DNA of 64,000 nucleotides, taken from Chloroflexota bacterium. GTDB lineage: Bacteria > Chloroflexota > UBA11872 > VXOZ01. Below, piece by piece: positions 12,301 to 53,412 of this stretch (positions are counted from its first letter, which is position 1; each line of letters starts with the position of its first letter). The DNA is taken from contig CAXXVD010000001.1 in assembly GCA_963662335.2 (NCBI GenBank), positions 576,001 through 640,000 of the forward strand, in the 5' to 3' direction. The position numbers and the translations under genes were made by a program. The notes under the pieces were generated by a model. The model was not told the origin of the DNA, made no database searches, and saw only the letters and a list, made by a program, of their open reading frames with translations.

Positions 12301-12580
12301 GCTGGTCTTCATCGCGGCGTTTCTCGCGCGCTTCTTCCTGCTGACGCACCGCCTGGCGCGGGGCAGCGGCGAACGGGCGGTCCGCGCTTTGGCGCTGGGC
12401 CTGGCCGGCAGCCAGCTTGCCGCGGTCACCCACGGCCTGCTGGACAACTACTACTTTCTGCCGGACTTGGCGAGTTGGTTCTGGTTGACGGCCGCGCTGT
12501 GCGCGCTGGTGTACGCGACACGCCCCGGACGCCCGCAATCCGCAGCGGCCGCCGGCGCGCCCGCGCTGGGAGCGCGTTGA
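9338..12580 (+). CDS. Membrane protein: clan GH-A glycoside hydrolase domain, beta-sandwich and O-antigen ligase (Wzy_C/WaaL-like) domain
   Basis: QIWNEPN (acid/base) and VWAGEYG (nucleophile) in the N-half; many TM helices with SPNHLA, SFSRAGW, PLTGVGPDNY, HPHNLFLDFW and HGLLD in the C-half. Confidence 0.8.
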   Translation: MSASRNASTASPMPAGARPPTARRRRFPRSESPIVARILFFSGYLLVLGAATLALVGYRFWFETGVAYGRESVYPIRHADVYRYGINTRFDQDPDWERIERGMALLEEAGFRYIRQLIPWEDIERPSKGRYWNEYEQVSSWLKYDRLVALAKQYNLTLIVRPERPPAWAYADGARPEDGRHQGPPARLEDYGDFVYAFAQRYRGDVHIFQIWNEPNLHGEWWPHNPDPAAYVALLKVASQRIRQANPEAIIVAAVLAPTTETGPRNVSELLFLEGIYAHGGAPYFDVASTASYGLWYAPGDRYIARHRTNLARAALVREVMVRNGDAAKPVWAGEYGWVALPPDWQGNPSLWGNVSEETQAQYTLAGMERAQREWPWLPVINLWHFYWPDAHPDDPTQHFAVVDADFAPRPVLTALRTAMRAPPALGPGYHQESHPALAWEGAWLDIGDARYVLGQARGSPLGGAKLRFRFRGTAVSLVVRRGPDTGIALVRINGSQSLAHRLAKDAGGQATLDLYAPDDRWQEEVLLADRLPDREHVVEIEITGRRNPQSSASGVDIDAVVVVRERPLWPYVVVGGLYAGFLAAVGWVIAGWLRRRAWPRRLLHTAVGWTASGIWRHEAARCALLLPLAALLWLAPGAAAQYLLLALLGLAALVWPRALLYVVAALLPFAVLVPAAGGLALPVSEMLAVLLTGSLIAHAYLQGRWPVARRVFFWWAVGLLAIGAVSLLFAHYGVFSLRELRQTILVPVLLFIVACWLLENRQQAWRLVQAFVAGAVVAAGVALLGPLVESLAGAGSGLRFTVEAEGVRRLTGFYPSPNHLALIVERALPFVVAAGACKLWPRRVAWPLAAVLALALLGSFSRAGWLAGFALLLFFIWTLWPERRQRLQFVGGALVAGALLLAGGVTLGPERVRSALSVEPGTTTHMRLLQGQSSLRMAVDYPLTGVGPDNYLYVYADYLHPDAGSEPNLSHPHNLFLDFWLRLGLAGLVFIAAFLARFFLLTHRLARGSGERAVRALALGLAGSQLAAVTHGLLDNYYFLPDLASWFWLTAALCALVYATRPGRPQSAAAAGAPALGAR

Positions 12581-13609: not shown

Positions 13610-15883
13610 TCATTGCAGGACATGGGCCACGTCGAACAGGATAAAGAACGCGGCCAAGCCGAGGATGCCGCCCCAATAGAGCCGCAGCCGCAGTTCGAAG
13701 TGCCGGCAGAGCCACGCCCAGCAGTAGAGGACCGCCCCTTGCATGGCCAATACCAGAACCAGCACGACCGCTAAGAAGAAGATATGGTTGTTGAACTCTC
13801 GCCATAGCGCCATAGACCAAAAGTCGAGCCCCAGGAGGAAGGCGGGGTCTTGCGGCCAGATCGCCACGCCCAGCAGCGTCCAGGGCGGATGGCCGAGCAA
13901 CGCGGCTGAGACGTCCGCTTGCGGCGCGAAGAGTTTGGCGGCGTCCGCCGCCAGCGCCCAGAGGTGCGCGAAGAGGGGCGAGAACGGCGCCGCAAAGAGG
14001 GAGAGCACGTTCTCCTTATCCATCGCGTCCAGCGTGGGCAGGGCGTAGTAGGCCTGTCCCACGCGCCCGGCCAGGAACGCGCCGTTTTCCGGTATCTGGG
14101 GCAGAATCTGCGCGCGCAGCAGGTCGAAGTACGCCGTGAAGTCCTTGGCCACCGCGATGATCTGCACGCCAATGCCGGCCGCGCCCAGCGCTAGCGCCGC
14201 GCGCAGTTCCCGGACACCGTTGTCGAAGAGCGCCTTCTCCAGGATTGGCGCGGCCATGATGAGGCAGAGGGGGACGGCCGGAACCAGAAACCGCGGCCCC
14301 CAGCCGCTGCCGCCGTACCAGTCGCTCGCGCCGCTGTACACCAGGAGATAGAGCAGCGGGATGCCGATGAAGGGCAGCGTCCACCACTTGTGCCGTCCCA
14401 CGAAGAGCAGGCTGCCAAAGAGCGCCAGGATGAGGGGCGGCGCGTAGAGCAAGACGCTCTTCCCCGGACTGAGGAGCGTGCCGAACAGGCCGATCCAGAG
14501 CGGGAGATCGAGCCAGGCGGTCGCGCGCTCGGCCAGGTCACCGGCCGCCGGCGGCTGCGCGTCGAATCCCAGCGCGAGCACGGCCAGCGCCGCCGCGCCA
14601 AGCACGGCAACGGGGGCCAAGAACGCCGCGGTGCTCGTCACGGCCCAGGCCAGACGGCGCAAGACGTGCTGGGCGCTCTGCAGTGAGACGAGCGCCGGCA
14701 CGAACGCCAGCACAACGAGATTCAGCGCCGTCGTAAACTCGATCGCAATGCCGCCAAAGAGCGCGCAGCCGGCAACCGGCAGCCAGGCGACCTGCCGTTC
14801 CTGGAGGCCGCGCAAGAGGAAGTAGACCGTTCCCAGCAGCGCGAGCGCGATGCCCGGCTCCGCAAAGTCGTAGGTGGCGTACGGCCAGGCGAGGGTGGCC
14901 AGGCCGTAGAGCATCGTCACGGCGAGGGCAACCTGGCTGTGGTACCCCAGGCGGCGGGTGATGAGGAATACCAGCACCGCGTTCAGGGCGGAGACCCAGG
15001 CCGCCGTGAAGAGCGCGAACAGACGGATGAAGAAGTCGCTGTTCGCCTGCTCGGACCAGACGTTCCCGCTCGCGCCGATGAGGAGCGGCGCGGAGGCCCC
15101 GGCGTCGATGAGGTTCAGGGACGTGATGTGCAAGCTGCCTTCGTCGGCCAGGTACTGTATCGTGGCGCTCTTTACGGTCAACGTCTGCGGAAAGTCGAGT
15201 TGCGAGACGTAGACGTGGGACCGGGGGAGGCCGATGCGGCCGGCCGCGGCGTTGGCGCGCTCGTGCGCCACGGCGCCGCCCATCTCCGGCCGGTCGTACG
15301 CCCAGTCCGCGGTATCGCGTCCGGCCAGCATCTGGCCGTAGAATCTGCCGGTGGGAACGGTATCCAACGTGATGGTGGCGATGCGCATGCCGTCCTCGAG
15401 CGCGCGCGCATCCGCCAGATAGGAAAATATCACCAGACCCGAGGCGCGCACCTCATCAAGCGGAATGTAGACCGAATCGCGGGCGCCGGGCGCGCCGCGC
15501 GGCGCGAGCGCGGGATACGCCGCGACGCGGTAGTCGCGCCCCTCGTGCCGGAACGTGTCCTTTTGCGGCAACAGCGGCTCGACGACGGTCCCGAGGAGCA
15601 AAGCGGGCTGCATGAGCAGCGGCAGGCCGATCTCCCACCCCTCCAGGTCGCGGTACCGTTCGCCCGCAAACGTCTGCCGCGGGTCGAGAAGGAGGCTGCG
15701 GCCCACGTCGTAGGCGTCGCGTCCTTGCGGACTGTACGCATGGCCGCCGGCCGTCAGGGCGTACAGGAGCAGAAAGAAGAGGAAGAGGACGCCGAGCAAG
15801 CGGCGCGTGTGCCCCGGCGCGTCTTCCAGAGAAGGGTGTACGCTCGTGAGCGGCGCCGCGCGGGTGGAGTGGAAGCGCTTCAT
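13610..15883 (-). CDS. Polytopic membrane protein, probable GT-C (lipid-carrier-dependent) glycosyltransferase with an extracytoplasmic insert
   Basis: Many TM helices; LATLAWPYATYDFAEP, LLSPGKSVLLYAP and WYGGSGWGPRFLVP motifs resemble PMT/ArnT-like proteins. Confidence 0.6.
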   Translation of the reverse strand: MKRFHSTRAAPLTSVHPSLEDAPGHTRRLLGVLFLFFLLLYALTAGGHAYSPQGRDAYDVGRSLLLDPRQTFAGERYRDLEGWEIGLPLLMQPALLLGTVVEPLLPQKDTFRHEGRDYRVAAYPALAPRGAPGARDSVYIPLDEVRASGLVIFSYLADARALEDGMRIATITLDTVPTGRFYGQMLAGRDTADWAYDRPEMGGAVAHERANAAAGRIGLPRSHVYVSQLDFPQTLTVKSATIQYLADEGSLHITSLNLIDAGASAPLLIGASGNVWSEQANSDFFIRLFALFTAAWVSALNAVLVFLITRRLGYHSQVALAVTMLYGLATLAWPYATYDFAEPGIALALLGTVYFLLRGLQERQVAWLPVAGCALFGGIAIEFTTALNLVVLAFVPALVSLQSAQHVLRRLAWAVTSTAAFLAPVAVLGAAALAVLALGFDAQPPAAGDLAERATAWLDLPLWIGLFGTLLSPGKSVLLYAPPLILALFGSLLFVGRHKWWTLPFIGIPLLYLLVYSGASDWYGGSGWGPRFLVPAVPLCLIMAAPILEKALFDNGVRELRAALALGAAGIGVQIIAVAKDFTAYFDLLRAQILPQIPENGAFLAGRVGQAYYALPTLDAMDKENVLSLFAAPFSPLFAHLWALAADAAKLFAPQADVSAALLGHPPWTLLGVAIWPQDPAFLLGLDFWSMALWREFNNHIFFLAVVLVLVLAMQGAVLYCWAWLCRHFELRLRLYWGGILGLAAFFILFDVAHVLQ

Positions 15884-34541: not shown

Positions 34542-35654
34542 ATGAGCGCCAGCGCCTCGCGCGCCGCCATCCTCTGGGCAATCATCCGCAAGGACTTGCT
34601 GGAATACCGCCGCGAGCGGTTCTTCGTCGTCATCACCGTCATCGGCATCGCGCTCTACGCCACCGCCTTCTGGCTGATGCCGAGCGACGTGGACGAATCG
34701 TTTGCCGTGGGCGTACGCCAGACCGGCATGGACGCCGTCTTTGCCCAGGCCATGGGCGACCAGGCTGCGGGCCTGGAAATCGTGCAGTTCGAGACCATTG
34801 AAGCGCTGGAGGCGGCGCTGGGCGTGGGCGGCGCGGAACCGGAGGAGCCGCTGGCGATTGGCCTGGCCTTCCCCGACGACTTCCTGCAACGGGTAGCCGC
34901 CGGCCAGCAGACCACGGTGCGGGTCTACGTGGACGCCAACGTGCCCGCCGAAATCCGGCGCGCCATGGCGAGTTTCGTGCGCGAGATCGCCTACGCCCTC
35001 TCCGGCAATCCCCTGCCGGTGGCCGAGCCTGACCGGGAAGTAATCGTGCTCGGTGAAGACCGGCTGGGCGCGCAGGTGCCGTTCCGCGAAAAGATGCGGC
35101 CCCTCTTTGCCTTCTTTGCGCTCATCATCGAGACCTTTGCCCTCAGTTCGCTGGTCGCCACCGAGATTCAGGCGCGCACGGTGACTGCCGTGCTGGTCTC
35201 GCCCACGCGGGTCTCCGACTTTCTAGCCGCCAAAGGCATCCTGGGCACGGGGATGGCGTTTGTCCAGGCCGTGCTCCTGCTGCTCATCATCGGCGCGTTC
35301 ACCACCCAGCCGCTCATCTTGCTCTGCGCGCTCCTGCTGGGCGCGGTGCTGGTGACCGGCTGCGGCCTGATCGCCGGCGCGGCGGGCAAGGACTTCATCG
35401 AGACGCTCTTCTACGGCATGGCCTTCATGGTGCCGCTGATGATTCCGGCAATCGCCGCGCTCTTTCCCGGCACCGCCGCGGCCTGGGTGAAAGTCCTGCC
35501 GTCCTACGGTCTGGTGCAGGCGGTGGTGCAGGCCAGCGCCTACAACGCCGGCTGGGCGGACGTGCTGCCGTACCTCGCCATGTTGCTGGCGTGGTGCGTG
35601 GTAGCCTTCGCGGCGGGATTGATAATCTTGAAGAGAAAGGTGGAGACGCTGTGA
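34542..35654 (+). CDS. ABC-2 type exporter permease
   Basis: IIRKDL N-terminus, extracellular loop, E..ARTVTAVLVSP motif, multiple TM helices; follows the ATPase gene. Confidence 0.88.
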   Translation: MSASASRAAILWAIIRKDLLEYRRERFFVVITVIGIALYATAFWLMPSDVDESFAVGVRQTGMDAVFAQAMGDQAAGLEIVQFETIEALEAALGVGGAEPEEPLAIGLAFPDDFLQRVAAGQQTTVRVYVDANVPAEIRRAMASFVREIAYALSGNPLPVAEPDREVIVLGEDRLGAQVPFREKMRPLFAFFALIIETFALSSLVATEIQARTVTAVLVSPTRVSDFLAAKGILGTGMAFVQAVLLLLIIGAFTTQPLILLCALLLGAVLVTGCGLIAGAAGKDFIETLFYGMAFMVPLMIPAIAALFPGTAAAWVKVLPSYGLVQAVVQASAYNAGWADVLPYLAMLLAWCVVAFAAGLIILKRKVETL

Positions 35655-36718
35655 GCGGAATGAACACGTTGCACCTATTGCGCAAGGACCTGGGCGTCGG
35701 TCCGCGCTCGCCGATCTTCCTCTACGCCATCGCGCTGCCGGTGATTCTCACGCTGCTCATTCGCGTGGTGTTTGGCAGCCTCTTCGATCCCGCGCCCCGG
35801 CTGGGCATCGTGGATGAAGGCGACTCTCAGATTGTCGAGAACGCCCGCAATGTCGAGGGGGTCGAGATTAGATTTCCGGAATCCGCCGCCGCCTTGATGC
35901 AGATGGTGGAGAAAAACGACCTGGACGCGGGCCTGGTGCTGCCCATCGGCTTCGACGCGGCGTTGCGGGCGGGCCAGATGCCCAACGCGCAGTTCTTCTT
36001 CGGCGGCCAGAGCCTGGCCTCGAACCGCGTCGTGTTGGGCGTGACCATGGTTGACCTCATCCGCGAGGCGGCGGGGGCGCCGGCGCCCATCGACGTGGAA
36101 ACCGTCACCGTAGGCGATGGCGACGCGGCGCCGCTGGTAGCGCGGCTGTTGCCCTTGATCGTCCTCATGGCGGTGCTCATCGCCGGCGCGCTCACCCCGG
36201 CCACAAGCCTGGTGGAAGAAAAAGAGAAGCGCACGCTCACCGCGCTGCTGGTCACGCCGGCCCGGCTGGGTGACGTGCTGCTCGCCAAGGGCGCGTTGGG
36301 CTTCATCCTGGCCATGGCCACCGGCACGGTCACCCTGGCGCTGAACGGCGCGCTGGGCGCGAATACTGCCGCGCTGCTGTTGGTGCTGGTACTGGCGACC
36401 CTCATGGCGGCCGAGGTCGGCCTGATGCTCGGCTCGTTCGCCAAAGACACCAAAGCGCTCTACACCATCTGGAAGTCCGGCGCCATCGTCCTGCTCGCGC
36501 CCGTGATCTTCTTCATCTGGCCCAACCTGCCCCAGTGGATAGGAAAAATCTTCCCCACCTACTACTTCCTCTCTCCCCTCTTCGAGATCGCCATCCGCGG
36601 CGCCGGCCTGGCTGACGTGTGGCCGGAACTCGCCATCGGCTTCGGCATCTGCGCGGCGTTCCTGCTGGGCGTCTACGCCCTGGGGCGGCGCATGGAGTCA
36701 ACCCTGGCCGCGACATAA
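35651..36718 (+). CDS. ABC-2 type exporter permease (second subunit)
   Basis: LLRKDL, EEKEKRTLTALLVTP, FPTYY; GTGA overlap with the previous gene. Confidence 0.88.
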   Translation: MSGMNTLHLLRKDLGVGPRSPIFLYAIALPVILTLLIRVVFGSLFDPAPRLGIVDEGDSQIVENARNVEGVEIRFPESAAALMQMVEKNDLDAGLVLPIGFDAALRAGQMPNAQFFFGGQSLASNRVVLGVTMVDLIREAAGAPAPIDVETVTVGDGDAAPLVARLLPLIVLMAVLIAGALTPATSLVEEKEKRTLTALLVTPARLGDVLLAKGALGFILAMATGTVTLALNGALGANTAALLLVLVLATLMAAEVGLMLGSFAKDTKALYTIWKSGAIVLLAPVIFFIWPNLPQWIGKIFPTYYFLSPLFEIAIRGAGLADVWPELAIGFGICAAFLLGVYALGRRMESTLAAT

Positions 36719-36721
36719 GGA

Positions 36722-36781
36722 CGCCTGGATGATGAAGGCAGTCTCGTGTCCGCCCATCGGCCGCAGGCCAAATTGCGTTGA
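36722..36781 (+). pseudogene. Orphan 3'-terminal remnant of a beta-propeller paralog
   Basis: Translates as RLDDEGSLVSAHRPQAKLR*, matching the paralog C-termini RLDDKGNLMPANPQ and RIDDEGNLVPANSP. Followed by TGAACCCTA, as after copy 4. Confidence 0.7.
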
Positions 36782-36821
36782 ACCCTAAACGGAATCTGTA
36801 TGTTACTGGGGATTCTCTAAT

Positions 36822-36870
36822 CTGTTGGCCTCATCCGTTTGACATCATGGCAATATATGCGCTCTATCAG
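36822..36870 (+). repeat. Conserved upstream motif of the propeller array, copy 1
   Basis: CTGTTGGCCTCATCCGTTTGACATCATGGCAATATATGCGCTCTATCAG. Confidence 0.8.
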
Positions 36871-36904
36871 GTATATCACCCGTGAGTTAGCAAGGAGTGT
36901 CATC

Positions 36905-38227
36905 ATGCGGCGAGATTGGTCGACGCTGCGAAGGTTTCTCCTGCTGTTCACATTCCTGATCACTAGTGCTTGCAGTGGCAGCACATCTACTAGCGAGCCA
37001 GCCTACCCATGCGGGCCATTCTTCATTGGCGAGAGGGCATACAAACAATTCCCTCTCGAATGGACGCCCGACGGCAATCTTCTTATCTTTCGCGCAGGCA
37101 CAACCATTGGAGTAGTTGATGCCATAGGTACAAACCTGCGGACGCTTGCTGATGCGAATCCGGGAAACGAACTGATGTATGGCATTCATGTGGATATCTC
37201 ACCAGACGGTAGGCAGGTTGTTTACTCCAGTTGCGAATTCCCGACGGGAGGCGGGACAATACGACCCGCAAGGAAAGACTTCAACTATGAATTAGTCTTA
37301 GTCAACCTGGAAGGCACGGAAAAACAGCGTTTGACACTGAACACACATCTCGACCTCTACCCGGCGTGGTCACCCAATGGCAGCCGCATTGCCTTTGTTG
37401 CGAACCCGCGCAGCAGGCACGCGGAACTCTATGTTATGGCGGCAGATGGGTCAGATGTGCGGCAGGTAGCAACCACGCTCATAGAATCGGTTACCGAGAG
37501 ATACGGCAAGAGACTAGCGACAAACGCCCTACATACGCACTGGAAGAGAGGAGAGGGAGAAGATCTCAGCGATGACGAAGACGCGTGGTTGGGTGCCGTA
37601 GCCCTTGCGCCGCCGTTGTGGTCGCCCGACGGAAAGCGCTTGGCGTTCTTGGTCGAGGAAGGGGAGTATGGGCCGTATCAGAAGATCCTGTACTCGGTGC
37701 GCGCAGATGGAACAGACTTGAAGCGTGTGGCGGCGACGGAAGCTTTGCCAGCCTGGTCACCGGATGGGCAAAGGATAGCTCTGGTAACGTATGCCGGCGA
37801 TGATTTGGCGCTCTACACAATACTGGCAGACGGTTCTGACCCAAAGCTGATAACCACCGTAACAGAGAAGGAGACCTTCGAGCATCGGAACTCCCGATAC
37901 TTCAGCGCGGATTTTACTCTGTCGTGGTCGCCGGACGGCGCCCAGATACTCTATACCTGTGACTTTGGCGCGTGTGTAGTGAACGTAGGGAATAGCGAAG
38001 TTACTGTCTTGGTGGAGGGAACGACAAAGTGGGACGAAGAGACGTACATTGCAGCGTGGTCACCAGACGGTGCCCGCATTGCTCTGTACGTTCCCGGCAA
38101 TGACTACTACAACATACCGACCCAACTCTACACGATAGCCCGCGACGGCACCGACCGCCGCGACCTGATAGCCCTGGACACCAGCGGCAACCTGGCTCCG
38201 GCCAACCCACCGAAGGAGGCACCGTGA
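36905..38227 (+). CDS. TolB-like PD40/WD40-like beta-propeller lipoprotein, copy 1 (type A)
   Basis: ITSAC lipobox, YPCGP, about 8 W(S/T)PDG repeats, YTCDFGAC; AAGGAG RBS. Confidence 0.85.
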   Translation: MRRDWSTLRRFLLLFTFLITSACSGSTSTSEPAYPCGPFFIGERAYKQFPLEWTPDGNLLIFRAGTTIGVVDAIGTNLRTLADANPGNELMYGIHVDISPDGRQVVYSSCEFPTGGGTIRPARKDFNYELVLVNLEGTEKQRLTLNTHLDLYPAWSPNGSRIAFVANPRSRHAELYVMAADGSDVRQVATTLIESVTERYGKRLATNALHTHWKRGEGEDLSDDEDAWLGAVALAPPLWSPDGKRLAFLVEEGEYGPYQKILYSVRADGTDLKRVAATEALPAWSPDGQRIALVTYAGDDLALYTILADGSDPKLITTVTEKETFEHRNSRYFSADFTLSWSPDGAQILYTCDFGACVVNVGNSEVTVLVEGTTKWDEETYIAAWSPDGARIALYVPGNDYYNIPTQLYTIARDGTDRRDLIALDTSGNLAPANPPKEAP

Positions 38228-38274
38228 TGAACAGTGATCGGAAAATCCCTTATTTGCCAAGTTCCTTTCAAGAA

Positions 38275-38328
38275 CCTGACTGTTCACCACACCCGTTTGA
38301 CATCCTGGCTATATATGCGCTCTATCAG
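38275..38328 (+). repeat. Conserved upstream motif, copy 2
   Basis: CCTGACTGTTCACCACACCCGTTTGACATCCTGGC core, identical in copies 2, 3 and 4. Confidence 0.9.
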
Positions 38329-38356
38329 ACAATTCCGTAAGCAAAGGACTGTGAGC

Positions 38357-39625
38357 ATGCGACGATTCTGTTTGGCCGCATTGGGGCTGGCACTGGCCTT
38401 AAGTGTTGTCAGTTGCGGCCCACGGCAAACCGATGTATACGATGGAGACGCTTACCCATGTGGCCCGTTAGGGTTGGATGGCCCCTACCTCAATTTGGAA
38501 AGACATGTCCTTAACTGGACCCCGGACGGCTCTCAGCTCATTTTCCCCCACGATACAACCATTTGGATCGTTGACACCGCCGGAGTTCGGTTGAATGCGC
38601 TGGTTGACGTGAACCCGGACAACGAGCTTGGCTACGGCTTCCACGCCGATATTTCGCCGGACGGCACGCGCATGGTATATGCCACCTGCGAGTTCCACTC
38701 AAGCGACACCTTGTTTGTGCAACGAGATGACTACAATTACGAGATCGCCGTTATCAACCTCAATGGCACTGGTCGCCAGCGACTCACGACGAACCGAATA
38801 CTTGACTACTTTCCCGTTTGGTCGCCCGTCGGCAACCGTATCGCCTACATATCGAACCCTAGAGGAGCCAGCGACCACACCAACGAACTCTTCGCGATGG
38901 CAACGGACGGGTCGGACGTCCGGGACGTATTATCAAGTGCCACGCCTGCGAAAGTTAGCGATAGAAGACTGTATGGCAAGGTCGTGCTAGCGCCACCGAT
39001 GTGGTCGCCGCCAGACGGTAGCTACTTAGCATTTCTGGTGAATGAAGGAAGCAATATACCGTATCGGCACATTCTCTACACGGTGCACCTTGGTGCGATG
39101 GAGTTGACCCGGGTCGCAGAGGTGGCGGGTCTGCCGGAAGGCAGCCTTGTGCCAATCTTGCCGTCCTGGTCGCCGGATGGCGAACATCTTGCTTTCGTAA
39201 TGGCCGATGAGGAGGGTACGCCTGCCGGCGTCTACACTATCCGTCCAGATGCAACAGACCTGCGGCAGGTGCTGGAACCGCAAGCACCAGGTTGGAGAGT
39301 ATTCCACGTGGCTTGGGCGCCGGATGGTGCCGAGATTCTCGTCGTCACTGATCAGGGGTTGCATTTCATTCAGCCGGACGGTAGCGGTCTGCGCATGGTG
39401 GACCAGAGTACCGCGTTTCATGACTCCGTTGATAGCCTAGGGATTGCTGTGGCATGGTCACCTGACGGCACACGTATTGCGTTGTACTTACCAGGCGCTG
39501 CCTACAAGAACATACCGACCCAACTCTACACAATAGCCCGCGACGGCACCGACCGCCGCGATCTGATAACCCTGGACGCCGACGGCAACCTGGCTCCGGC
39601 CAACCCGCCGCAGGAGGCGCCGTGA
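38357..39625 (+). CDS. TolB-like beta-propeller lipoprotein, copy 2 (type B)
   Basis: VVSC lipobox, YPCGP, WSPDG repeats, QVLEPQ..W..FIQPDGSGLR. Confidence 0.85.
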   Translation: MRRFCLAALGLALALSVVSCGPRQTDVYDGDAYPCGPLGLDGPYLNLERHVLNWTPDGSQLIFPHDTTIWIVDTAGVRLNALVDVNPDNELGYGFHADISPDGTRMVYATCEFHSSDTLFVQRDDYNYEIAVINLNGTGRQRLTTNRILDYFPVWSPVGNRIAYISNPRGASDHTNELFAMATDGSDVRDVLSSATPAKVSDRRLYGKVVLAPPMWSPPDGSYLAFLVNEGSNIPYRHILYTVHLGAMELTRVAEVAGLPEGSLVPILPSWSPDGEHLAFVMADEEGTPAGVYTIRPDATDLRQVLEPQAPGWRVFHVAWAPDGAEILVVTDQGLHFIQPDGSGLRMVDQSTAFHDSVDSLGIAVAWSPDGTRIALYLPGAAYKNIPTQLYTIARDGTDRRDLITLDADGNLAPANPPQEAP

Positions 39626-39671
39626 TGAACAATGATCAGATTGCCCCTCATTACCAAGTTCCTTTCAAGAA

Positions 39672-39725
39672 CCTGACTGTTCACCACACCCGTTTGACAT
39701 CCTGGCGATTTATGCGCTTTGTGAG
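39672..39725 (+). repeat. Conserved upstream motif, copy 3
   Basis: Identical 35-bp core. Confidence 0.9.
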
Positions 39726-39754
39726 ACAAAGTGACACTTGAGGACTCTATTGCT

Positions 39755-41119
39755 ATGGATTGGATCAAGCAGTTACCTATGTTCGTACTTGCCGCTGTAG
39801 TGTGTCTTGGCATGACTGCGTGTGCGCAAGAAAAGGGCGAAGGATCTGGCATGGATACACAGCCGACTTCCACGCCTTCAGTGCTGTCCACTCCGCTCAC
39901 CCCGCTGCCGACGCCAAGGGAAAAGGGGGACGAAACTTTGGTATTGCCCTGCGGGCCGACACCTCAGGAAGCAGGCGGTCATGATTTCTATGGCTTCGGC
40001 GATGTCTTTCTAGAGTTCACGCCAGATGGCTCCCAGCTAATGTTTTCTTACAGCACTTCCATTTGGATCGTTGATGTTGCGGGTACCCAATTGCGTATGC
40101 TGGTGAATGCCAATCCCCGAGGCAGCTTTGAATACGGCTTCCATGCCGACATTTCGCCTGACGGTACGCAGGTCGTCTTTTCGACCTGCGATTACCCTTG
40201 GGACGCTCAGAGTTTTGCCGCTAGGCATGGCAATGCATTGCTCTCACTGCCCGTATACTCACCTGACAAGTATGATATTGCCTTGATTGACATTGACGGT
40301 GACGCGCCACGGCGACTCACTAAGAGTCGATACTTGGACCACTTTCCGGCATGGTCGCCCGACGGAAGTCGCATCGCTTACATCCACTTCCTTGATAGTA
40401 CCCGCATGGGAATACCCCCCAGAACCATCCGAACGATGACGGCAAACGGCTCCGAGTGGCAGGAGGTTCAGAAGACTCGCAGTTTGGCAATTGCTGCCGC
40501 ACGGCTGGCGTGGTCGCCGGATGGGAAGAAGCTAGCATTCCTCGTACATGACTGGGAGAACTGGCCGCGTCAATATACCCTCTACACCGCCCTCGCCAAT
40601 GGCTCCGAATTGCGGAAAGTGGCTGAGAACGTTGTAAGCGACGCGGCATGGTCGCCGAATGGACAGCTTATTGCACTAGCAAGGCTCGTCGGCGAGGAAG
40701 TAGGGCTCTACACTCTGGCCGCTGACGGCTCCGACCAGAAGCTGATTGCTGCCATTAACGACATAGAGGGGTACCTGGACTGGTCTGTTGAATTCACATC
40801 TTTGTTGGTGAACTCGGAGGCGTGGTCGCCGGATGGCACTATGCTTCTCTATTCTTGTCTTGAAGGCGCATGCGTAATTGATGTCGAGAGTGGACAGAGC
40901 ATCGGGCTGGTATCCGACAGTGCAGTGAGGTATCGCCAACCTTTCATTGCAGCTTGGTCTCCGGACGGCTCGCGAATCGCGATCTATACGCCCGGGCACA
41001 CTTTTGACGGCGTACCGGCCCGGCTTTTCACAGTAGCCCGTGACGGAAACGACCACAGCGATCTGATACGTATAGATGACGAGGGCAATTTGGTGCCAGC
41101 GAACTCGCCAAGAGAATGA
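39755..41119 (+). CDS. TolB-like beta-propeller lipoprotein, copy 3 (type A)
   Basis: MTAC lipobox, Pro/Thr linker, LPCGP, WSPDG repeats, YSCLEGAC. Confidence 0.85.
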   Translation: MDWIKQLPMFVLAAVVCLGMTACAQEKGEGSGMDTQPTSTPSVLSTPLTPLPTPREKGDETLVLPCGPTPQEAGGHDFYGFGDVFLEFTPDGSQLMFSYSTSIWIVDVAGTQLRMLVNANPRGSFEYGFHADISPDGTQVVFSTCDYPWDAQSFAARHGNALLSLPVYSPDKYDIALIDIDGDAPRRLTKSRYLDHFPAWSPDGSRIAYIHFLDSTRMGIPPRTIRTMTANGSEWQEVQKTRSLAIAAARLAWSPDGKKLAFLVHDWENWPRQYTLYTALANGSELRKVAENVVSDAAWSPNGQLIALARLVGEEVGLYTLAADGSDQKLIAAINDIEGYLDWSVEFTSLLVNSEAWSPDGTMLLYSCLEGACVIDVESGQSIGLVSDSAVRYRQPFIAAWSPDGSRIAIYTPGHTFDGVPARLFTVARDGNDHSDLIRIDDEGNLVPANSPRE

Positions 41120-41190
41120 ACCATGTTTAACTATCCCATATTTTCGCCTGACCCTCTGCTAGCCCATGGCAGACGCGAATCCTCGGCGTG

Positions 41191-41244
41191 CCTGACTGTT
41201 CACCACACCCGTTTGACATCCTGGCAATCTACGCTCTGTACCAG
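41191..41244 (+). repeat. Conserved upstream motif, copy 4
   Basis: Identical 35-bp core, although the sequence upstream of it is unrelated to copies 2 and 3. Confidence 0.9.
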
Positions 41245-41266
41245 ACGTTACCGTGAGGAAAGACTG

Positions 41267-42676
41267 TTGTTCCAGCGAATAGTTCGTGTAGGATTGCTTG
41301 TGCTTCTGACACTGGCTGTTGTCGCATGCCAGCAAGACTCGATCAGATCCCAACAAGAGACAACTATCGGTGAGAGGATTCAAGCTAATGCAAGTCCTTC
41401 GCCTATAGCCATCGTCGTACCAACGGCAACACCCTATCCGACTCCAGATACTGCGCCAGACGGTGAGCCAAGTTTTGATTGTGGCCCACTGGGCATGGCT
41501 GGGCCTCACGCAGCTTCAGAAAGACTGACTCTGGCGTGGACGCCGGATAGCACTCAGATCTTATTCAACTACGCGCCTACAGACAGACAGCAATATGATG
41601 GGAAACCGCTCTTCTTAAGTGCCTTTTGGATGGTGGACGCGGCCGGCACGAGGTTGCAGATGCTTGTGGATTCCAATCCCGGCTATTACTCCGCTTACGG
41701 ATATCACGCTGACTTGTCCCCGGATGGTAAGCGGATTGCATACACTACTTGCGAGTTTGCTCACGAAGGATTCCTAGGTTACCGCGGCGAAAACATGGAA
41801 CGAGCACGATTCCTGTACGAGATTGCTGTCATCAACCTAGACGGTACTGGTCAGGAGCGGATCACGGCGAATAGATATCTTGAGCACTATCCAGTCTGGT
41901 CGCCCGATGGTTACCGCATCGCGCTCATTTCAAACTCTGCCGGGCCACACAGAACCCTTCGAAACGGCCGTACTGTACTCTACACAATATCGGCAGACGG
42001 ATCCGATTGGCAACGGGTGTCGGTGCCTGAACAAACCGGCTTGGCACTCGCGCCGCCGGCGTGGTCTCCCGATGGAGTGTACCTAGCGTTCGTGGCAGAT
42101 GGAGGAGAAAACCTATCGAATAGGAGTGTTTTGTATACCGTGAGGGCAGATGGGTCAGAAGGAGGCAGAATTGCAGATATTGCGACCAAGTCAGGTCTAC
42201 TGTGGCACTTGCCAACGCTACCCAGTTGGTCACCGGATGGTAAACACCTTGCATTTGTGAAGGCTGCCGGCAATGGCAGGTCTGGCGGCATCTACTTGGC
42301 ACGACCTGATGGCTCAAACTTGCAACAAGTGCTGCAACCGCAAGAGCCGAACTGGAACATCACTCAAGTCTTGTGGTCGCCAGATGGCTCGGAGATTCTT
42401 GCAGTATCGGATCAGCGGCTTTACTTCTTCCAACCGGACGGTAGCAGTCTGCGGACGGTGGAACTGAGGGTTGAAGAATTCTACGGCCCTAAGCGAATAG
42501 TTGCATGGGCGCCAAACAGTACCCGTATCGCAATCTACACACTGTTAGACAGTAGCAGTAACATACAGCCTCAGCTCTACACAGTAGCCCGGGACGGTAC
42601 CAACCGCCGCGACCTGATAACCCTGGACGCCGACGGCAACCTGGCTCCGGCCAACCCACCGCAGGGGGCACCATGA
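41267..42676 (+). CDS. TolB-like beta-propeller lipoprotein, copy 4 (type B)
   Basis: VVAC lipobox, FDCGP, WSPDG repeats, QVLQPQEPNW..FFQPDGSSLR. The TTG start after GAGGA is tentative. Confidence 0.83.
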   Translation: MFQRIVRVGLLVLLTLAVVACQQDSIRSQQETTIGERIQANASPSPIAIVVPTATPYPTPDTAPDGEPSFDCGPLGMAGPHAASERLTLAWTPDSTQILFNYAPTDRQQYDGKPLFLSAFWMVDAAGTRLQMLVDSNPGYYSAYGYHADLSPDGKRIAYTTCEFAHEGFLGYRGENMERARFLYEIAVINLDGTGQERITANRYLEHYPVWSPDGYRIALISNSAGPHRTLRNGRTVLYTISADGSDWQRVSVPEQTGLALAPPAWSPDGVYLAFVADGGENLSNRSVLYTVRADGSEGGRIADIATKSGLLWHLPTLPSWSPDGKHLAFVKAAGNGRSGGIYLARPDGSNLQQVLQPQEPNWNITQVLWSPDGSEILAVSDQRLYFFQPDGSSLRTVELRVEEFYGPKRIVAWAPNSTRIAIYTLLDSSSNIQPQLYTVARDGTNRRDLITLDADGNLAPANPPQGAP

Positions 42677-42687
42677 TGAACCCTAGC

Positions 42688-42741
42688 CGGATTGTCCACC
42701 GCATGCGCTGGACATCCTGGCGATCTATGCACTCTGCCAAA
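42688..42741 (+). repeat. Conserved upstream motif, copy 5 (diverged)
   Basis: TTGTCCACCGCATGCGCTGGACATCCTGGCGATCTATGCACTCTG aligns with the core. Confidence 0.75.
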
Positions 42742-42768
42742 GCCGCGACTGAGGATTGGAGTGTCAAA

Positions 42769-44220
42769 GTGGGACGTCTGTGGCTGGTTCTGTTGGTGCT
42801 ATTGCTGTGTCTGGCCGCTTGCGCGGAGGACAAAAGCGAGACCAGAAACAAGATCAATGAAGAGCAGGCACGTGAACTTGCGGAGCAGCGTCGTGAGCGC
42901 GACAGGATTGCCTATGAAGAGAAGCTAAAGGAGATTGAGGAACTTCGCAGGAAGCGCGACCAAGAGCTGATAGATAGCAATTTCGGGCATCCTCGCCTGC
43001 CGTGCGGAATGTCTCAGTTGGGCTATCCCCCGGTTGCCTACCACGACAATTTCTTGGTGTGGACGCCGGACGGTACACGTCTCATATTCGATGGAGGACC
43101 AGAGGCAATATGGGAGGTGAATACTGAAGGAACCGCGGTGAGAAGGCTCTTTGACATTAATCCAAATGGGAATCGACCCTACGTAGATGAGACTAAGTTA
43201 CCCTACGGCTTCTTTGCCGACGTTTCACCGAACGGAAAACTAATCGTCAGTGGCATTTGCAGGAATGACACTGGCAGGCCGATCGAACACTATGAGATCG
43301 CCGTATTCGACCTGCGCGATGGCGGGAGGCAGCTTCTCACGGACAATGCCATTCTCGACCGCTACCCGGTGTGGTCGCCGGACGGCAGCCGGATCGCCTA
43401 CGTTAGTTTCGCGAGATATTTTGGCTTACACCACCGACTCTACACAGTGGCAGCGGACGGGTCGGACAGGCGGATCGCGACTTCCGTGCCGGTTACGTTC
43501 TATCCGGCGCAAACTGCGGCTGAAGAGAAAGACGCAGCGGTACCCAAGTTAAGAGGAATTGCGCTGTTTCCGCCAGCGTGGTCACCGGACGGCAAGAAGC
43601 TGGCGTTCCTGGTATACGAAGAATCTGAAGTGAAGTACGATCCGCGTCGGAAGATACTCTACACCGTGCGGGCAGACGGTTCGGAGTTGGCACGGATAGC
43701 CGAGGATGTCGTAAGCGTGGCATCGTGGTCGCCGGACGGGCAACGGCTGGCGGTGGCCAAGTACGCCGGGGAAGCAAGAGAAGGCGTTGCGCTCTTCACG
43801 CTGGCAGCCGACGGTTCCGACGAGAAAGAGATTGCTACCATCACGGACAGCATCAGCGCATTCCGTAGCAGCTATGAGTGGAAAGTCCACACGGTGTCGT
43901 GGTCACCAGATGGGACACAGATCCTCTACTCCTGTGATGAGGGCGCGTGCGTTGTTACTTTGGAGGATGGGCAGGTGACCGGGTTGGTAACAGAACTGGA
44001 GTTGCGTGACAACGCGCCGTACATTGCAGCCTGGTCTCCCGATGGCACGCGCATCGCCGTATACGATCCAATTGGCCCCACAGCTAGCTATCCCGGCTAC
44101 GAGATGCCACCCGCGCTCTATACGGTGGCCCCAGACGGCACTGACCGTCACGATTTGCTACGCTTGGATGATAAGGGCAACCTGATGCCCGCGAACCCGC
44201 AACAATTAGAGGGATCATGA
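42769..44220 (+). CDS. TolB-like beta-propeller lipoprotein with charged coiled-coil stalk, copy 5 (type A)
   Basis: LAAC lipobox, E/R/K-rich helix, LPCGM, WSPDG repeats, YSCDEGAC. Confidence 0.85.
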   Translation: MGRLWLVLLVLLLCLAACAEDKSETRNKINEEQARELAEQRRERDRIAYEEKLKEIEELRRKRDQELIDSNFGHPRLPCGMSQLGYPPVAYHDNFLVWTPDGTRLIFDGGPEAIWEVNTEGTAVRRLFDINPNGNRPYVDETKLPYGFFADVSPNGKLIVSGICRNDTGRPIEHYEIAVFDLRDGGRQLLTDNAILDRYPVWSPDGSRIAYVSFARYFGLHHRLYTVAADGSDRRIATSVPVTFYPAQTAAEEKDAAVPKLRGIALFPPAWSPDGKKLAFLVYEESEVKYDPRRKILYTVRADGSELARIAEDVVSVASWSPDGQRLAVAKYAGEAREGVALFTLAADGSDEKEIATITDSISAFRSSYEWKVHTVSWSPDGTQILYSCDEGACVVTLEDGQVTGLVTELELRDNAPYIAAWSPDGTRIAVYDPIGPTASYPGYEMPPALYTVAPDGTDRHDLLRLDDKGNLMPANPQQLEGS

Positions 44221-44287
44221 TGGAAGTCTACGAGATGTCCCCTGCTCTCGCAGATGTCTTTGGCGGCTGAATGGCATTCTGTGAGCC

Positions 44288-44339
44288 GGTTTGCACACCA
44301 CTCCGTTCGACTTCATGTCGATTTACGGCCTCTGTCCAA
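44288..44339 (+). repeat. Conserved upstream motif, copy 6 (most diverged)
   Basis: TTGCACACCACTCCGTTCGACTTCATGTCGATTTACGGCCTCTG aligns loosely with the core. Confidence 0.55.
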
Positions 44340-44353
44340 TGCGTTATAAGGAA

Positions 44354-45733
44354 ATGGAGAGAAGGTTCGTGGATTTCGGACAAGAACAGACAAAACTGAC
44401 CCTGTTAGTAATTGTAATACTCGTCTTGGGTATGGTCGGCTGTGGGGAAGCAGCAGCACCTCCACATAAGCGAATAGTAAAGGATCATCCCGCATATCCT
44501 TGCGGTCCGTACTGGAACGGAGTTGGTTCCCTTGATGGTTTTCTCCATTGGATACCTGATGGCTCCGGTCTAATATTTGGACAGGAGGGGGAGATTTGGA
44601 CAACGGATAACAGCGGCAGTTCGCTGCGGCGGATTGCTCATTCCAGTTCCGACTACGAGTCTGCCATCGGCTCCTATGCGGATGTGTCGCCAAACGGCGA
44701 CAAGATCGTCTATGCGACGTGCGAGTATCGGACAGAAGAAGCCAGAGAATACGGATCAAATCCCGAGCGAAGCAAATACAACTTCGAGATCGCCGTTGTT
44801 GACTTGGCAAGCGGGGAAAAACAGCGGCTGACAACGAACGTGTACCTTGATCACTACCCGGTTTGGTCACCCGATGGCGCCCACATTGCTTTCATTGCAA
44901 ACCCACGCACTTGGGGCCGCTCCATAGGGGAAAACTCGGAAGTCTATATGATGAGGACGGATGGATCGGACGTGCGGCTGCTAGCTTCCACCTTAAACGA
45001 AGTGAGCACTGGGAGATGGGAAACAAACGCCATCGCAAACAGTCTGAAGAGATCCAAGGGAGAGAAGATTGAGGAATCTGTTGAGCCGTGGCTAGGCGCG
45101 GTAGCCTTGGCGCCGCCGGTGTGGTCCCCAGTCGGTGAGCACGTGGCTTTTCTGGTTGGAGAAGGTCCAGGCCCTAACTTACATGATCGGGCAGTTCTCT
45201 ATACGGTTCGGCCAGATGGATCGGAGTTGACACGGATTGCGGAAGCGATGTTCCCGCCGTCGTGGTCACCAGACGGCAACTTCCTTGTCTTCGTTAGGGC
45301 AGACGAGGAGGGCAAGGCCGCAGGCGTTTACACTGCCCGTCCCGATGGTACCGAACTAGCACAGATCCTGGCGACACAAGAACCTGAGTGGGTAATCACT
45401 CAAGTGCTGTGGTCACCGGATGGGCAGGAAATCCTTGCAGTCTCGGAGCAGCGGCTCGATTTTCTCCAGCCTGATGGCAGTGGTTTGCGAACTATCGACA
45501 TGGCGCTAGATCCAGAATCGCTCGCGGCTGGGCTCAGACCCAGCTTTGGGCTGATTGCCGCATGGTCGCCGGATAGCGCACGCATTGCCTTTTATGTCCC
45601 ACTTCACGAGCGCTATGAAGTGCCATTAACACTCTACACCCTGGCGCGAGACGGAAAAGACAGGCGCGACCTGGTCACTCTGGATGAAGACGGCAACCTG
45701 GCCCCAGCCAAGCCGCCACAGCAGTCCGAGTGA
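44354..45733 (+). CDS. TolB-like beta-propeller lipoprotein, copy 6 (type B)
   Basis: MVGC lipobox, YPCGP, WSPDG repeats, QILATQEPEW..FLQPDGSGLR. Confidence 0.85.
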   Translation: MERRFVDFGQEQTKLTLLVIVILVLGMVGCGEAAAPPHKRIVKDHPAYPCGPYWNGVGSLDGFLHWIPDGSGLIFGQEGEIWTTDNSGSSLRRIAHSSSDYESAIGSYADVSPNGDKIVYATCEYRTEEAREYGSNPERSKYNFEIAVVDLASGEKQRLTTNVYLDHYPVWSPDGAHIAFIANPRTWGRSIGENSEVYMMRTDGSDVRLLASTLNEVSTGRWETNAIANSLKRSKGEKIEESVEPWLGAVALAPPVWSPVGEHVAFLVGEGPGPNLHDRAVLYTVRPDGSELTRIAEAMFPPSWSPDGNFLVFVRADEEGKAAGVYTARPDGTELAQILATQEPEWVITQVLWSPDGQEILAVSEQRLDFLQPDGSGLRTIDMALDPESLAAGLRPSFGLIAAWSPDSARIAFYVPLHERYEVPLTLYTLARDGKDRRDLVTLDEDGNLAPAKPPQQSE

Positions 45734-45814
45734 TGACCTATGCAATAGCACTCGTTGCATTTGTACCGCACGGGTTGTTGGGAGTGTCCCTTCTCCTTTT
45801 TCCCCTACTCCTAC

Positions 45815-47329
<1,515 letters not shown>

Positions 47330-51455: not shown

Positions 51456-51977
51456 TTAGGCTGACAGCAATTCGTCTCTCAGGACGATTGCCAAAACCGC
51501 TTCCACGTGCGCGCGCTCGATGCCCATCTCGTAAGCGCACACGGAAACGTGCCGTCGCCACTCGGCCGAGAGTCGGTTGGCTACGTACTCCCACGTAAAG
51601 TCGTTGACCTCAAAAGGCTCCAAGTTTTCGACTTCACGCAACAGTGGCGGCGCCAACTGCGTTGCCCAGCCGCGGGCGTTCAGTTTCGCCGCAATCTCCT
51701 CGCCAAACTCGCTCAGCCGATAGGGACTACTGCTCTCGATAGGCGAGCGGGGAGAAAGGTAGAGGAGTATTCGCTTGATGTCTTCTCTGACCTCTTTGGC
51801 GACGGTGGTGAACGCGGCCCGGTCTCTTTCCGCGTTTTCTTTCAAGCTGGCCAAGGTGCCGTCCACATTGGACGTCCAGCGGCTAACTTTCCATACAAAG
51901 ACAAAGACGCCAACGAGCGCTGAGCCGGCCGCCAAAGCCGCAATGACGATGAGAGGGGTGTTTAACCAGTCACCCAT
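51456..51977 (-). CDS. Hypothetical membrane-anchored protein (TM, short coiled coil, SSSPYRLSEFGE domain)
   Basis: Clean ORF with an N-terminal TM helix and somewhat lower GC than its neighbours. Confidence 0.65.
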   Translation of the reverse strand: MGDWLNTPLIVIAALAAGSALVGVFVFVWKVSRWTSNVDGTLASLKENAERDRAAFTTVAKEVREDIKRILLYLSPRSPIESSSPYRLSEFGEEIAAKLNARGWATQLAPPLLREVENLEPFEVNDFTWEYVANRLSAEWRRHVSVCAYEMGIERAHVEAVLAIVLRDELLSA

Positions 51978-52061
51978 GATCCGCCCCATCCTGCATAGAG
52001 AGCACGTCAACTGAGAAGTCTAACCGCATCTGCAGTCAGAATAGCACAAGATTTCGCACTG

Positions 52062-52697
52062 GTGAAGAATATCGGGCGTAGAAACCGTTACAGGTTCCGG
52101 CGTCGCAGAGCGAGCGGCGCCGCAAGGCTTCTCGTGAGTAGGCGCAGCATTGCTGTGCTCGCTTGCGCGTTGCTCCTGCTTGTCGTTCTGCAAAGAACGT
52201 GCGGCGGCGACGGCGGCAGTGTGCGGTTTTTCTTGGATTCCCCGTCACCCCGGCCCTCTCCTGCGGGGAGAGGAAGCGACGGCTATCCGGTCGTTGCAGT
52301 GGTGGACGGCGATACCGTGAACGTGCGCGTGAACGGCACGGTCGAGCCGGTGCGCCTGATCGGCATCGACGCGCCGGAAGCGCGCGCGCCAGGGAGAACG
52401 GCGCAGTGCTACGGCCCGGAAGCGAGCGCCGGGGCCGAGGCGTTGCTGCAGGGAAAGACCGTGCGCCTGGAGTTCGACGCCTCACAGGGCCGGCGCGACC
52501 GCTACGACCGCCTGCTGGCCTACGTCTGGGTGGGCCATACGCTGGTCAACGAGTCGCTGGTTCGCCGGGGCTACGCGCGGGAGTTCACGTTCGACGAACC
52601 GTATCGCTACCGGCAGTTGTTCCAGGCGGCGGAGGCGGAAGCGCGCGCCGCCGGCCGGGGACTATGGGCAGCCGATACCTGCGGCGGCAGCCGGTAA
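52062..52697 (+). CDS. Thermonuclease (staphylococcal nuclease-like) family protein
   Basis: VVDGDTV, VRLIGIDAPE, DRYDRLLAYV, VNESLVRRGYA, RGLW; N-terminal anchor. Confidence 0.93.
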   Translation: MKNIGRRNRYRFRRRRASGAARLLVSRRSIAVLACALLLLVVLQRTCGGDGGSVRFFLDSPSPRPSPAGRGSDGYPVVAVVDGDTVNVRVNGTVEPVRLIGIDAPEARAPGRTAQCYGPEASAGAEALLQGKTVRLEFDASQGRRDRYDRLLAYVWVGHTLVNESLVRRGYAREFTFDEPYRYRQLFQAAEAEARAAGRGLWAADTCGGSR

Positions 52698-52716
52698 TCA
52701 TCGTCCTGATCAGGAA

Positions 52717-53412
52717 TTATCGGCCGGTGGCGGCGCTCTCCACCTCAGCCAGCAGTTCGCCGCAGCGCGCCGCCACCCGCTCCACGATCGCGTTCACGAT
52801 CATGGCGCCCAGTTCCGGCGAGGCGTGCACGGAGGGGTCTTCGCCGCCGCAGCCTTGTTCCTTCATGGTCAGGTCCGTGCGGTAGCGGCTCATGTCGGTG
52901 AGTTCCGGGTGCAGGTGCATGAAGATCGAGGTCTCCCACTTGCCCGCGTGGTCGCCGGTGTAGCCGAGGTCTTTCACCACCTCGTATTCGGGAAACGCCC
53001 AGACCCGCACGTGGGGATGCTGGCGCTGGTACCATTCGGCCACCTCTTTGAGTCCGCGCACGTGCAACGAGCCGTAGTGGCCGGTGATGATGACGATGAC
53101 CTTGAAACCCTCGTCGTCCAGTTGCTCGATGAACTCCCGCGCCAGCGTGCGCACGGTCTCGTCGCGGAACTCCAGGGTGTGCTTGAAACCGGCGTGGGGC
53201 TTCATGGTCTGGAAGCCGCACCACACCACCGGCAGCGAGAGCGCGCCGGCCGCCTCGGCGCAGCGGTCGGCGATGCCCTGCGCCTTCAGCGCGTCCTGGC
53301 CGATTGCCATGTGGTAGCCGTGCCACTCGAACGCGCCCCACGGCAGGATGGCAATGGGCCGCGTCCGCAGTTGTTCCTCGATCTCGGCGGGCAACATGCG
53401 CTCGTATCTCAT
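52717..53412 (-). CDS. Creatininase family protein
   Basis: PWGAFEWHGYHMAIGQD, TGHYG, DHAGKWETS. Confidence 0.88.
   Translation of the reverse strand: MRYERMLPAEIEEQLRTRPIAILPWGAFEWHGYHMAIGQDALKAQGIADRCAEAAGALSLPVVWCGFQTMKPHAGFKHTLEFRDETVRTLAREFIEQLDDEGFKVIVIITGHYGSLHVRGLKEVAEWYQRQHPHVRVWAFPEYEVVKDLGYTGDHAGKWETSIFMHLHPELTDMSRYRTDLTMKEQGCGGEDPSVHASPELGAMIVNAIVERVAARCGELLAEVESAATGR

Follow-up and report, generated by a model that had tools for sequence, protein, structure and literature searches.

Propeller lipoprotein genes behind protease gene stubs: a changeable array in Chloroflexota and its candidate protease partner

In arrays of the T6SS (type VI secretion system) of Vibrio cholerae, an effector gene is displaced and the old immunity gene is retained, sometimes with the 3' end of the effector gene shifted back, and the spread of such immunity arrays via homologous recombination has been proposed (PMC5361080, accessible part). 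Metallopeptidase toxin domains are known in polymorphic toxins; Tox-MPTase1-5 occur with RHS repeats, and the table in the accessible part of that source gives no immunity protein for them (PMC3482391). Tsi1, an immunity protein against a peptidoglycan hydrolase, is a partial propeller (PMC3391265, accessible part). Here, we report on six propeller lipoprotein genes (g1-g6) in a stretch of 64,000 nucleotides (the window; contig CAXXVD010000001.1, positions 576,001 to 640,000) of a Chloroflexota bacterium (GCA_963662335.2, hereafter G000, 96% complete). Judged from sequence, the array is a row of six putative orphan partners, each behind the stub of a protease gene, and it very probably represents the orphan half of a two-gene architecture, i.e., a secreted FN3/metzincin-type protease and a seven-bladed propeller lipoprotein. 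Other G numbers denote related genomes, and L numbers fetched loci.

Protease stubs and the linked protease gene

Six same-strand, head-to-tail open reading frames (ORFs) of 462-517 amino acids lie at 36839-45733, between an ABC-2 permease gene and guaA. All of them pass the Pfam cut-off for PD40 and carry a lipobox cysteine, a (P)CG cysteine and a conserved C-terminal tail, with core identities of 34-52% among one another; the six tandem divergent PD40 lipoprotein paralogs described in the first-pass annotation of this DNA are confirmed in all these respects. The block is also, as had been noticed, more AT-rich than its flanks: GC is 0.53-0.57 per kb in 37001-45000 and 0.60-0.73 in every window bin outside 37001-46000, and GC at third codon positions is 0.54-0.64 in the array genes versus 0.86-0.88 in the permease and guaA genes. 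The permease stop is immediately followed by the propeller tail once more, in a seventh and decayed copy (RLDDEGSLVSAH.., then stop). Most of genes 2-6 is covered, with few differences, by contigs of three public runs, among which the source sample may be included. One run (8% share) is labelled sponge metagenome, and we do not take it as habitat evidence; RNA data were found in none of the sequencing runs listed with window sequence.

The common DNA motif upstream of the genes had been regarded as a signal of the cassette itself. It is present before 6/6 window genes (weak before gene 6), but it does not stand as a separate signal: it translates as ..EPDCSPHPxDIMAIYALYQ, then stop, the coding 3' end of a gene for a secreted, FN3-repeat, metzincin-type protein. 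The motif is read as the stub of a partner protease gene, and the unit is therefore a protease 3' end plus a propeller. Eleven sites of this conserved end (box 1), six within the window, are detected in G000 by a DNA model built only from 40 full-length proteases; 11/11 lie 5' of a propeller, and 62/73 propellers of the genus have a box 1 stub upstream. Most orphan cassettes retain only 20-45 codons of the enzyme; in related genomes, the junctions of some arrays contain longer pieces with HEAGHALG and the Met-turn. A reading of the motif as promoter or terminator was tried and rejected, with 4 promoter-like sites versus 4.9 expected and zero on the + strand; TTGACA occurs in the motif because of its F-D-I codons.

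Seventeen long ORFs in the fetched loci (585-1665 amino acids, stop to stop) end in the box-1 sequence. G000 has one intact pair (C1:406440-412878), in which a 1665-amino-acid protease ORF (C1:406440-411437) is followed by a propeller from C1:411400, and also an N-truncated protease and a frameshifted one, with leucine-rich repeat (LRR)-fused propellers nearby. In the intact proteases, a signal peptide (by eye) and FN3 repeats (Pfam) accompany a C-terminal domain that contains HExxH, a third His and a Met-turn. HExGH..G is invariant in one protease alignment, the rows of which were chosen for HE..H; the Glu is present in 16/17 rows of another alignment, the third His is at least 90% conserved at a position shifted by a variable insertion, and the Met-turn motif was located in 32/42 proteases (Met in 28, Leu in 4). 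Peptidase_M10 (PF00413) scores 18-22 bits in three sequences versus a cut-off of 24, the others tested giving no match; no peptidase family in NCBIfam is matched by the proteases, and ESM Atlas clusters are unnamed or M10-like at 0.91-0.95. The top five structural neighbours of the catalytic-domain model (predicted local distance difference test, pLDDT, 64.6) are matrix metalloproteinases, MMP-9, MMP-2 and MMP-12 among them, and serralysin (Z 7.3-7.5, root-mean-square deviation 3.6-4.2, 131-173 aligned), and Foldseek on this model returned nothing at E<=0.001. The partner appears to be a metzincin-type zinc protease whose likeness to matrixins is weak by sequence, and whose modelled fold may be MMP/serralysin-like. 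In six protease pairs, the ratio of nonsynonymous to synonymous divergence (dN/dS) is 0.10-0.23, purifying selection on the domain. The family comprises 395 clusters at 50% identity with E<=1e-30, and most of the 150 listed matches have the catalytic domain C-terminally or close to the C-terminus; all family searches began from the catalytic domain or the propeller. Proteases decay in a graded series, i.e., N-truncated, frameshifted, split by insertion sequences (IS) and reduced to stubs; the protease of G004 is interrupted by a DDE transposase, and this genome retains seven propellers. A near-full-length protease of G003 (L024:9793-12294) has Lys for the catalytic Glu and no signal peptide, and is followed by a frameshifted propeller with 76% DNA identity to window g3.

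The linkage of the two genes was examined in a GTDB genome scan; of its 183 confirmed stretches the best 80 were used, giving 68 loci, every one with a title naming Chloroflexota, Dehalococcoidia or Tepidiformaceae. A propeller gene lies directly 3' of 51/56 long and 33/35 short HExxH ORFs, counts of non-independent events as the loci share genomes and kin. Seven ORFs remain unpaired: one at a contig edge, one beyond the distance limit, one in a read-through fusion, two with pieces of a propeller 0.6-1.4 kb further on, and two with no propeller at all. In an even 200-genome sample of the phylum, the protease was found in two families only (4/7 and 7/11). Protease and propeller distances correlate with a Mantel rho of 0.27 over 42 pairs and 0.35 over 15 genus pairs, and the two proteins share their nearest neighbour in 21/42. 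A Rosetta-stone fusion was considered and rejected: the sole ORF with both domains (L089:9746-11995) runs from a protease piece into an entire propeller gene and retains the internal lipoprotein signal, so a lost stop codon is the probable explanation.

Several further arrangements were seen around these genes. The second array of G000 (L001:9904-16142 and L002:5091-13053; C1:412.9-429.1 kb) contains LRR lipoproteins, the N-truncated protease, the frameshifted protease and four propeller-LRR fusions, each 3' of a stub or protease end; two of its segments, C1:413.3-415.1 kb and 423.4-425.3 kb, are apparently duplicated. A lone propeller in G000 (L003:7406-8695; C1:464405-465694, - strand) lacks about two blades through an internal deletion and shows a weak stub at best. 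A third secreted family (LRR, cadherin and FN3; 1081-2109 amino acids) is often found 3' of the last propeller (L032:3675-6920, L043:2412-8741), and in G006 (L032:11019-11501) its N-terminus is fused to a propeller tail.

Propeller variation and turnover of the arrays

In the AlphaFold2 model of g1 (47 sequences, pLDDT 89.7), we read the strands as seven blades of four strands each and a C-terminal hairpin; Foldseek matches it to TolB first, and also to the propellers of S9/DPP4 peptidases and to designed seven-bladed proteins. With loop and strand classes taken from this model, column identity is 25% in the top-face loops, 49% in the strands and 65% in the bottom loops, so the earlier expectation that the variable loops map to one propeller face is borne out by the model. 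The top-face loops total 138-220 residues. Pooled dN/dS over 14 pairs is 0.45 in the top loops and 0.22-0.24 elsewhere; we read the top loops as relaxed or partly diversifying, never above 1. Nine orphan-orphan pairs have dN/dS of 0.23-0.47 (8/9 with p<0.001). A complete catalytic domain was not found in G008, G011 and G015 (97-99% complete, 1-2 contigs), the fetched loci of which hold seven, eight and four open propeller ORFs, respectively. The window propellers are 35-47% identical to G000's own cognate propeller; g3 and g5 share 65-67% identity with the cognates of proteases from other genomes.

Same-genus genomes contain guaA in 16/16 and the permease in 15/16 cases. Among the 15 permease-guaA intervals, seven are empty (about 300-450 nt), two hold unrelated cargo and six have propellers, the latter with 4, 4, 3 and 1 propellers, one IS1595-split propeller and one complete protease-propeller pair (G003). 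An old static paralog cluster had been named as the alternative to a mobile one; what these 15 relatives show is 0-4 propellers of different clades. The clades come from a quick tree, in which the last genes at this site fall into different clades and share the same final residues. About ten unlinked sites carry propellers across the genus, by our own grouping, and cassettes with 95.8% (G005) and 94.7% (G006) nucleotide identity are present at two distant sites of one genome. In 11 shared segments of at least 900 nt, 14/22 ends fall in a protease stub or tail, and in segments of at least 94% identity (n=4, three being one family) 7/8 ends do so; since conserved blocks attract BLAST ends, these ends say more about the unit than about where precisely the crossover lay. 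Silent divergence of the tail is 0.26 versus 0.02-0.03 in the gene in two near-identical pairs (few sites), as expected for exchange at the tail. On this comparison of genomes, cassettes are seen to be gained, lost and exchanged between sites, and the earlier proposal of units that can be gained, lost and shuffled holds with near-identical cassettes at different sites. Within a population, array rearrangement was not demonstrated, as four runs examined as contigs gave only short-sided joints (<40 letters in those listed).

The empty sites (L044, L045, L047, L048, L050, L052, L053) are filled by two palindromes that resemble repetitive extragenic palindromic (REP) elements; such palindromes also lie 3' of the G005, G008 and G011 arrays, and G000 has 2 and 0 matches to them. 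By eye, no copy of the tail or box 1 was found at the empty sites, which are therefore not a simple att site. The same interval in G016 (L054:2316-4435) encodes Vsr, a C5 DNA methylase and an ORF of no known kind, probably a restriction-modification unit; in G006 (L042:7509-10328), the resident propeller is interrupted by an IS1595-type transposase together with N6/N4 methylase and HNH ORFs.

A Met-turn junction recurs where cassettes meet. Among 62 propeller stops with a tail, 33 have a stub within 900 nt; an ATG lies within 12 nt of the stop in 29 of these 33 and is in frame with the stub in 14. A match to the Met-turn codons (>=8 bits) crosses the propeller stop in 31/62, versus 14/2902 long-ORF stops in G000 and 12/378 of those with a nearby ATG. 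Terminal genes, g6 among them, also carry Met-turn-like DNA at the stop, and several unrelated linkers begin at the junction. This suggests repeated use of the Met-turn junction, though descent from few events may also account for it. New pairs or cassettes would enter through homologous or homology-aided recombination at the protease 3' end and the propeller tail, and the protease body would then be lost, mostly up to the Met-turn codons that match a 12-nt sequence at the propeller stop. Quite improbable in our estimate is a bolder model, in which a circle (protease 3' end plus propeller) would form by recombination between Met-turn copies and re-enter arrays at the two conserved blocks, giving an integrase-free adaptive library of propeller-type metzincin inhibitors versus the proteases of rival strains and possibly host MMP-like enzymes. 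Excision scars, i.e., a protease ending at the Met-turn without box 1, were found in 0/91 HExGH ORFs (the six flagged all have a variant box 1), which counts against it.

The features of the locus are listed in Table 1. The right flank gene is presumed from its sequence to be guaA.

Table 1. Window features from the permease to guaA, with the relatives of each propeller
Feature	Position	Strand	Basis or remark	Relatives
ABC-2 permease	35591..36718	+	conserved left flank, outside the system	
Decayed propeller tail (RLDDEGSLVSAHRPQAKLR, stop)	36723..36782	+	DNA alignment, translation; remnant of a seventh propeller now lost, joined to the permease 3' end	
Protease 3' stub 1, box 1 (..WPHPFDIMAIYALYQVYHP, stop)	36822..36885	+	44.9 bits, model trained on full-length proteases only	
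g1 propeller lipoprotein, probable start	36905..38227	+	lipobox ITSA-C; AlphaFold2: seven blades	closest cognate-type relative: propeller of the intact G003 pair at the permease-guaA site (50%)
Protease stub 2	38227..38340	+	in-frame 37-aa mini-ORF from Met-turn-like ATG overlapping the g1 stop to box 1	
g2 propeller lipoprotein, probable start	38357..39625	+		nearest: LRR-fused orphan at a different site in G011 (69%)
Protease stub 3	39625..39734	+	box 1 39669-39720, not in frame with junction ATG	
g3 propeller lipoprotein	39755..41119	+	Pro/Thr stalk	propeller 3' of the L073 full-length protease (65%)
Protease stub 4	41123..41256	+	box 1 41189-41246	
g4 propeller lipoprotein, probable TTG start	41267..42676	+		none >48% in the 75-row BLAST table
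Protease stub 5	42676..42752	+	box 1 42685-42739; ends ..QSRD, stop, as L099 and L097 proteases do	
g5 propeller lipoprotein	42769..44220	+	charged helical stalk	propellers 3' of L099 and L097 proteases (66-67%)
Protease stub 6, decayed and frameshifted	44220..44327	+	box 1 44283-44327, 17 bits	
g6 propeller lipoprotein, start uncertain	44339..45733	+	final residues (..QQSE, stop) site-specific	G004 orphan at a different site (73%)
Met-turn-like DNA over the g6 stop codon	45730..45741	+	V-M-T-Y in another frame	
guaA (presumed)	45815..47329	-	conserved right flank, outside the system	

Elsewhere in the window, 9338-12580 (+) encodes a 1080-amino-acid protein with an O-antigen ligase domain (Wzy_C) confined to the last 230 residues and an N-terminal part without Pfam match, and ORFs at 13610-15883 (-), 51456-52010 (-) and 52163-52885 (+) have no Pfam match; some may be shadow frames.

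Candidate functions of the propellers

At the level of the genes, the pairing, the stubs before the six window genes and the retention of orphans under purifying selection without a complete protease domain have been demonstrated. The partner outlives the enzyme and its variation lies on one face, so an inhibitor or immunity role fits best, and we lean, with reserve, to the view that the propellers are protease inhibitors or immunity-like partners whose orphans accumulate as a library. The variable top face of each propeller would bind and block the cognate protease at the cell surface, and old or foreign propellers would be kept as a defence library against the polymorphic proteases of relatives. 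Chloroflexota are not known to have an outer membrane, hence such lipoproteins would face outward. A complex prediction with the G000 catalytic domain and the adjacent propeller (paired 42-row alignments) gave a score of 0.00, which is evidence neither way. A number of observations weigh against the inhibitor reading. No propeller face has dN/dS above 1, so diversifying selection is undemonstrated, and the purifying signal in orphan pairs comes partly from their time as cognate partners. Eleven of the 73 propellers have no stub, the L076 and L091 proteases have no propeller nearby, and the modest correlation of distances can be explained by plain linkage. C-terminal LRRs, of the kind typical for surface proteins with adhesion-like roles, are found on some propellers. 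Neither gene was detected, at the thresholds used, in 5/16 same-genus genomes (G001, G002, G010, G013, G016), hence cells can live without the system. The model of the catalytic domain is weak, and a Z below 8 is not decisive.

The propeller could instead be a positive partner, i.e., a surface anchor, folding helper or substrate-selecting adaptor, the arrays giving one protease many specificities, a possibility that we regard as unlikely. The hemopexin propeller of MMPs and the gating propeller of S9 peptidases are models for such a role. Tight linkage of protease and propeller is expected equally for an adaptor, both proteins have export signals, S9/DPP4 peptidase propellers are among the fold neighbours, and G000 has one intact protease and many propellers; however, the three genomes in which a complete catalytic domain was not found keep four to eight open propellers, and the orphan pairs involving them have dN/dS well below 1, whereas an adaptor left without its enzyme should decay. 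Rather doubtful, in our judgement, is an adhesin or receptor role of the propellers, directed at host or environmental ligands, with the protease co-transferred and its 3' end kept for translation signals and recombination homology. One-face variation, the variable stalks, the LRR fusions, the adjoining LRR/cadherin/FN3 surface proteins and the persistence of orphans without proteases all agree with binding of this kind. It leaves unexplained that nearly all proteases of the family, in each of the two Chloroflexota families that have it, precede a propeller, and that propeller clades track protease clades. The free-standing adhesin or receptor repertoire of the first-pass annotation does not hold up as an account of the near-constant protease linkage, though it may still be what the orphans do. 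Finally, we give very little credence to the arrays being largely neutral by-products, in which repeat recombination makes tandem pairs, decay is faster in the large proteases and the propellers persist. The graded decay of proteases would be expected, as would the broken propellers of G003 and G006 and a site that is empty in 7/15 relatives and also takes unrelated cargo, but the six window genes are open with intact lipoboxes at 34-52% identity, and, with dS as low as about 0.1, the orphan-orphan dN/dS values are still 0.25 and 0.39.

If the propellers inhibit, they would provide a new metzincin-inhibitor scaffold with hundreds of natural enzyme/partner variants whose pairing is readable from gene order, and a specificity matrix for protease-inhibitor co-evolution on a fold close to MMPs; orphan-immunity arrays would be extended to a signal-peptide-exported protease in uncultured Dehalococcoidia. 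Some FN3, PD40 and LRR repeat proteins, usually just counted as 'eukaryote-like', would gain a testable role. Whatever the function, the upstream motif has an explanation, and the array changes fast within one genus.

Comparison with described systems

We did not find this system in the literature searched; the supplements of PMC3482391 could list the family. The locus falls outside the T6SS, potempin, integron, diversity-generating retroelement (DGR) or Tol-Pal families. Reverse transcriptase (PF00078) had no match in G000 (control positive 3/14). With TolB the propellers share PD40 repeats and the top Foldseek match; they differ in TIGR02800 scores (80.8 bits for g1 and 75.9 for g5 versus a cut-off of 343; two of the six genes tested), in a TM-score of about 0.44, in the seven blades of the model and in the lack of a TolQ/ExbB match in G000, where MotA/TolQ/ExbB (PF01618) gave 0 matches (control positive 9/14; Pal and TolA were not searched for). 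Like integron cassette arrays, the locus consists of one-orientation tandem single-gene units of variable number and order with low GC, but no integrase adjoins the array, no inverted repeats were found at the window junctions and the repeats are protein-coding. That the array has no integrase had been said before and is correct: the two tyrosine recombinases (PF00589) of G000 are on contigs C4 and C5, neither being the array contig.

The KLIKK/potempin system of Tannerella forsythia is similar in combining a secreted peptidase (two are metzincins) with a linked inhibitory lipoprotein that protects the cell surface; as far as the accessible part of the source goes, potempins are beta-barrels of 98-132 amino acids, encoded upstream, one per peptidase (PMC9890683), whereas here a propeller of 400 amino acids is encoded downstream, with orphan arrays and hundreds of variants. 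Polymorphic toxin systems, as described in the accessible part of PMC3482391, share an export signal, repeats and a C-terminal enzyme, with the partner gene 3' and orphan cassettes behind. The 20-45 enzyme codons of the orphan cassettes are too few to rebuild a toxin, so the array would store partners, not warheads. T6SS orphan-immunity arrays often have one complete pair first and then partner genes of other types (PMC5361080, accessible part). The present system differs in that G000 has no match to TssC/VipB (PF05943; control positive 1/14), in that its effector-like protein combines a signal peptide with FN3 repeats, and in having a single propeller family and a single protease family at about ten unlinked sites, with stubs that begin at a recurring Met-turn junction. 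By analogy with these systems, our best reading is that the locus works like an effector/immunity or peptidase/inhibitor pair with arrays of orphan partners.

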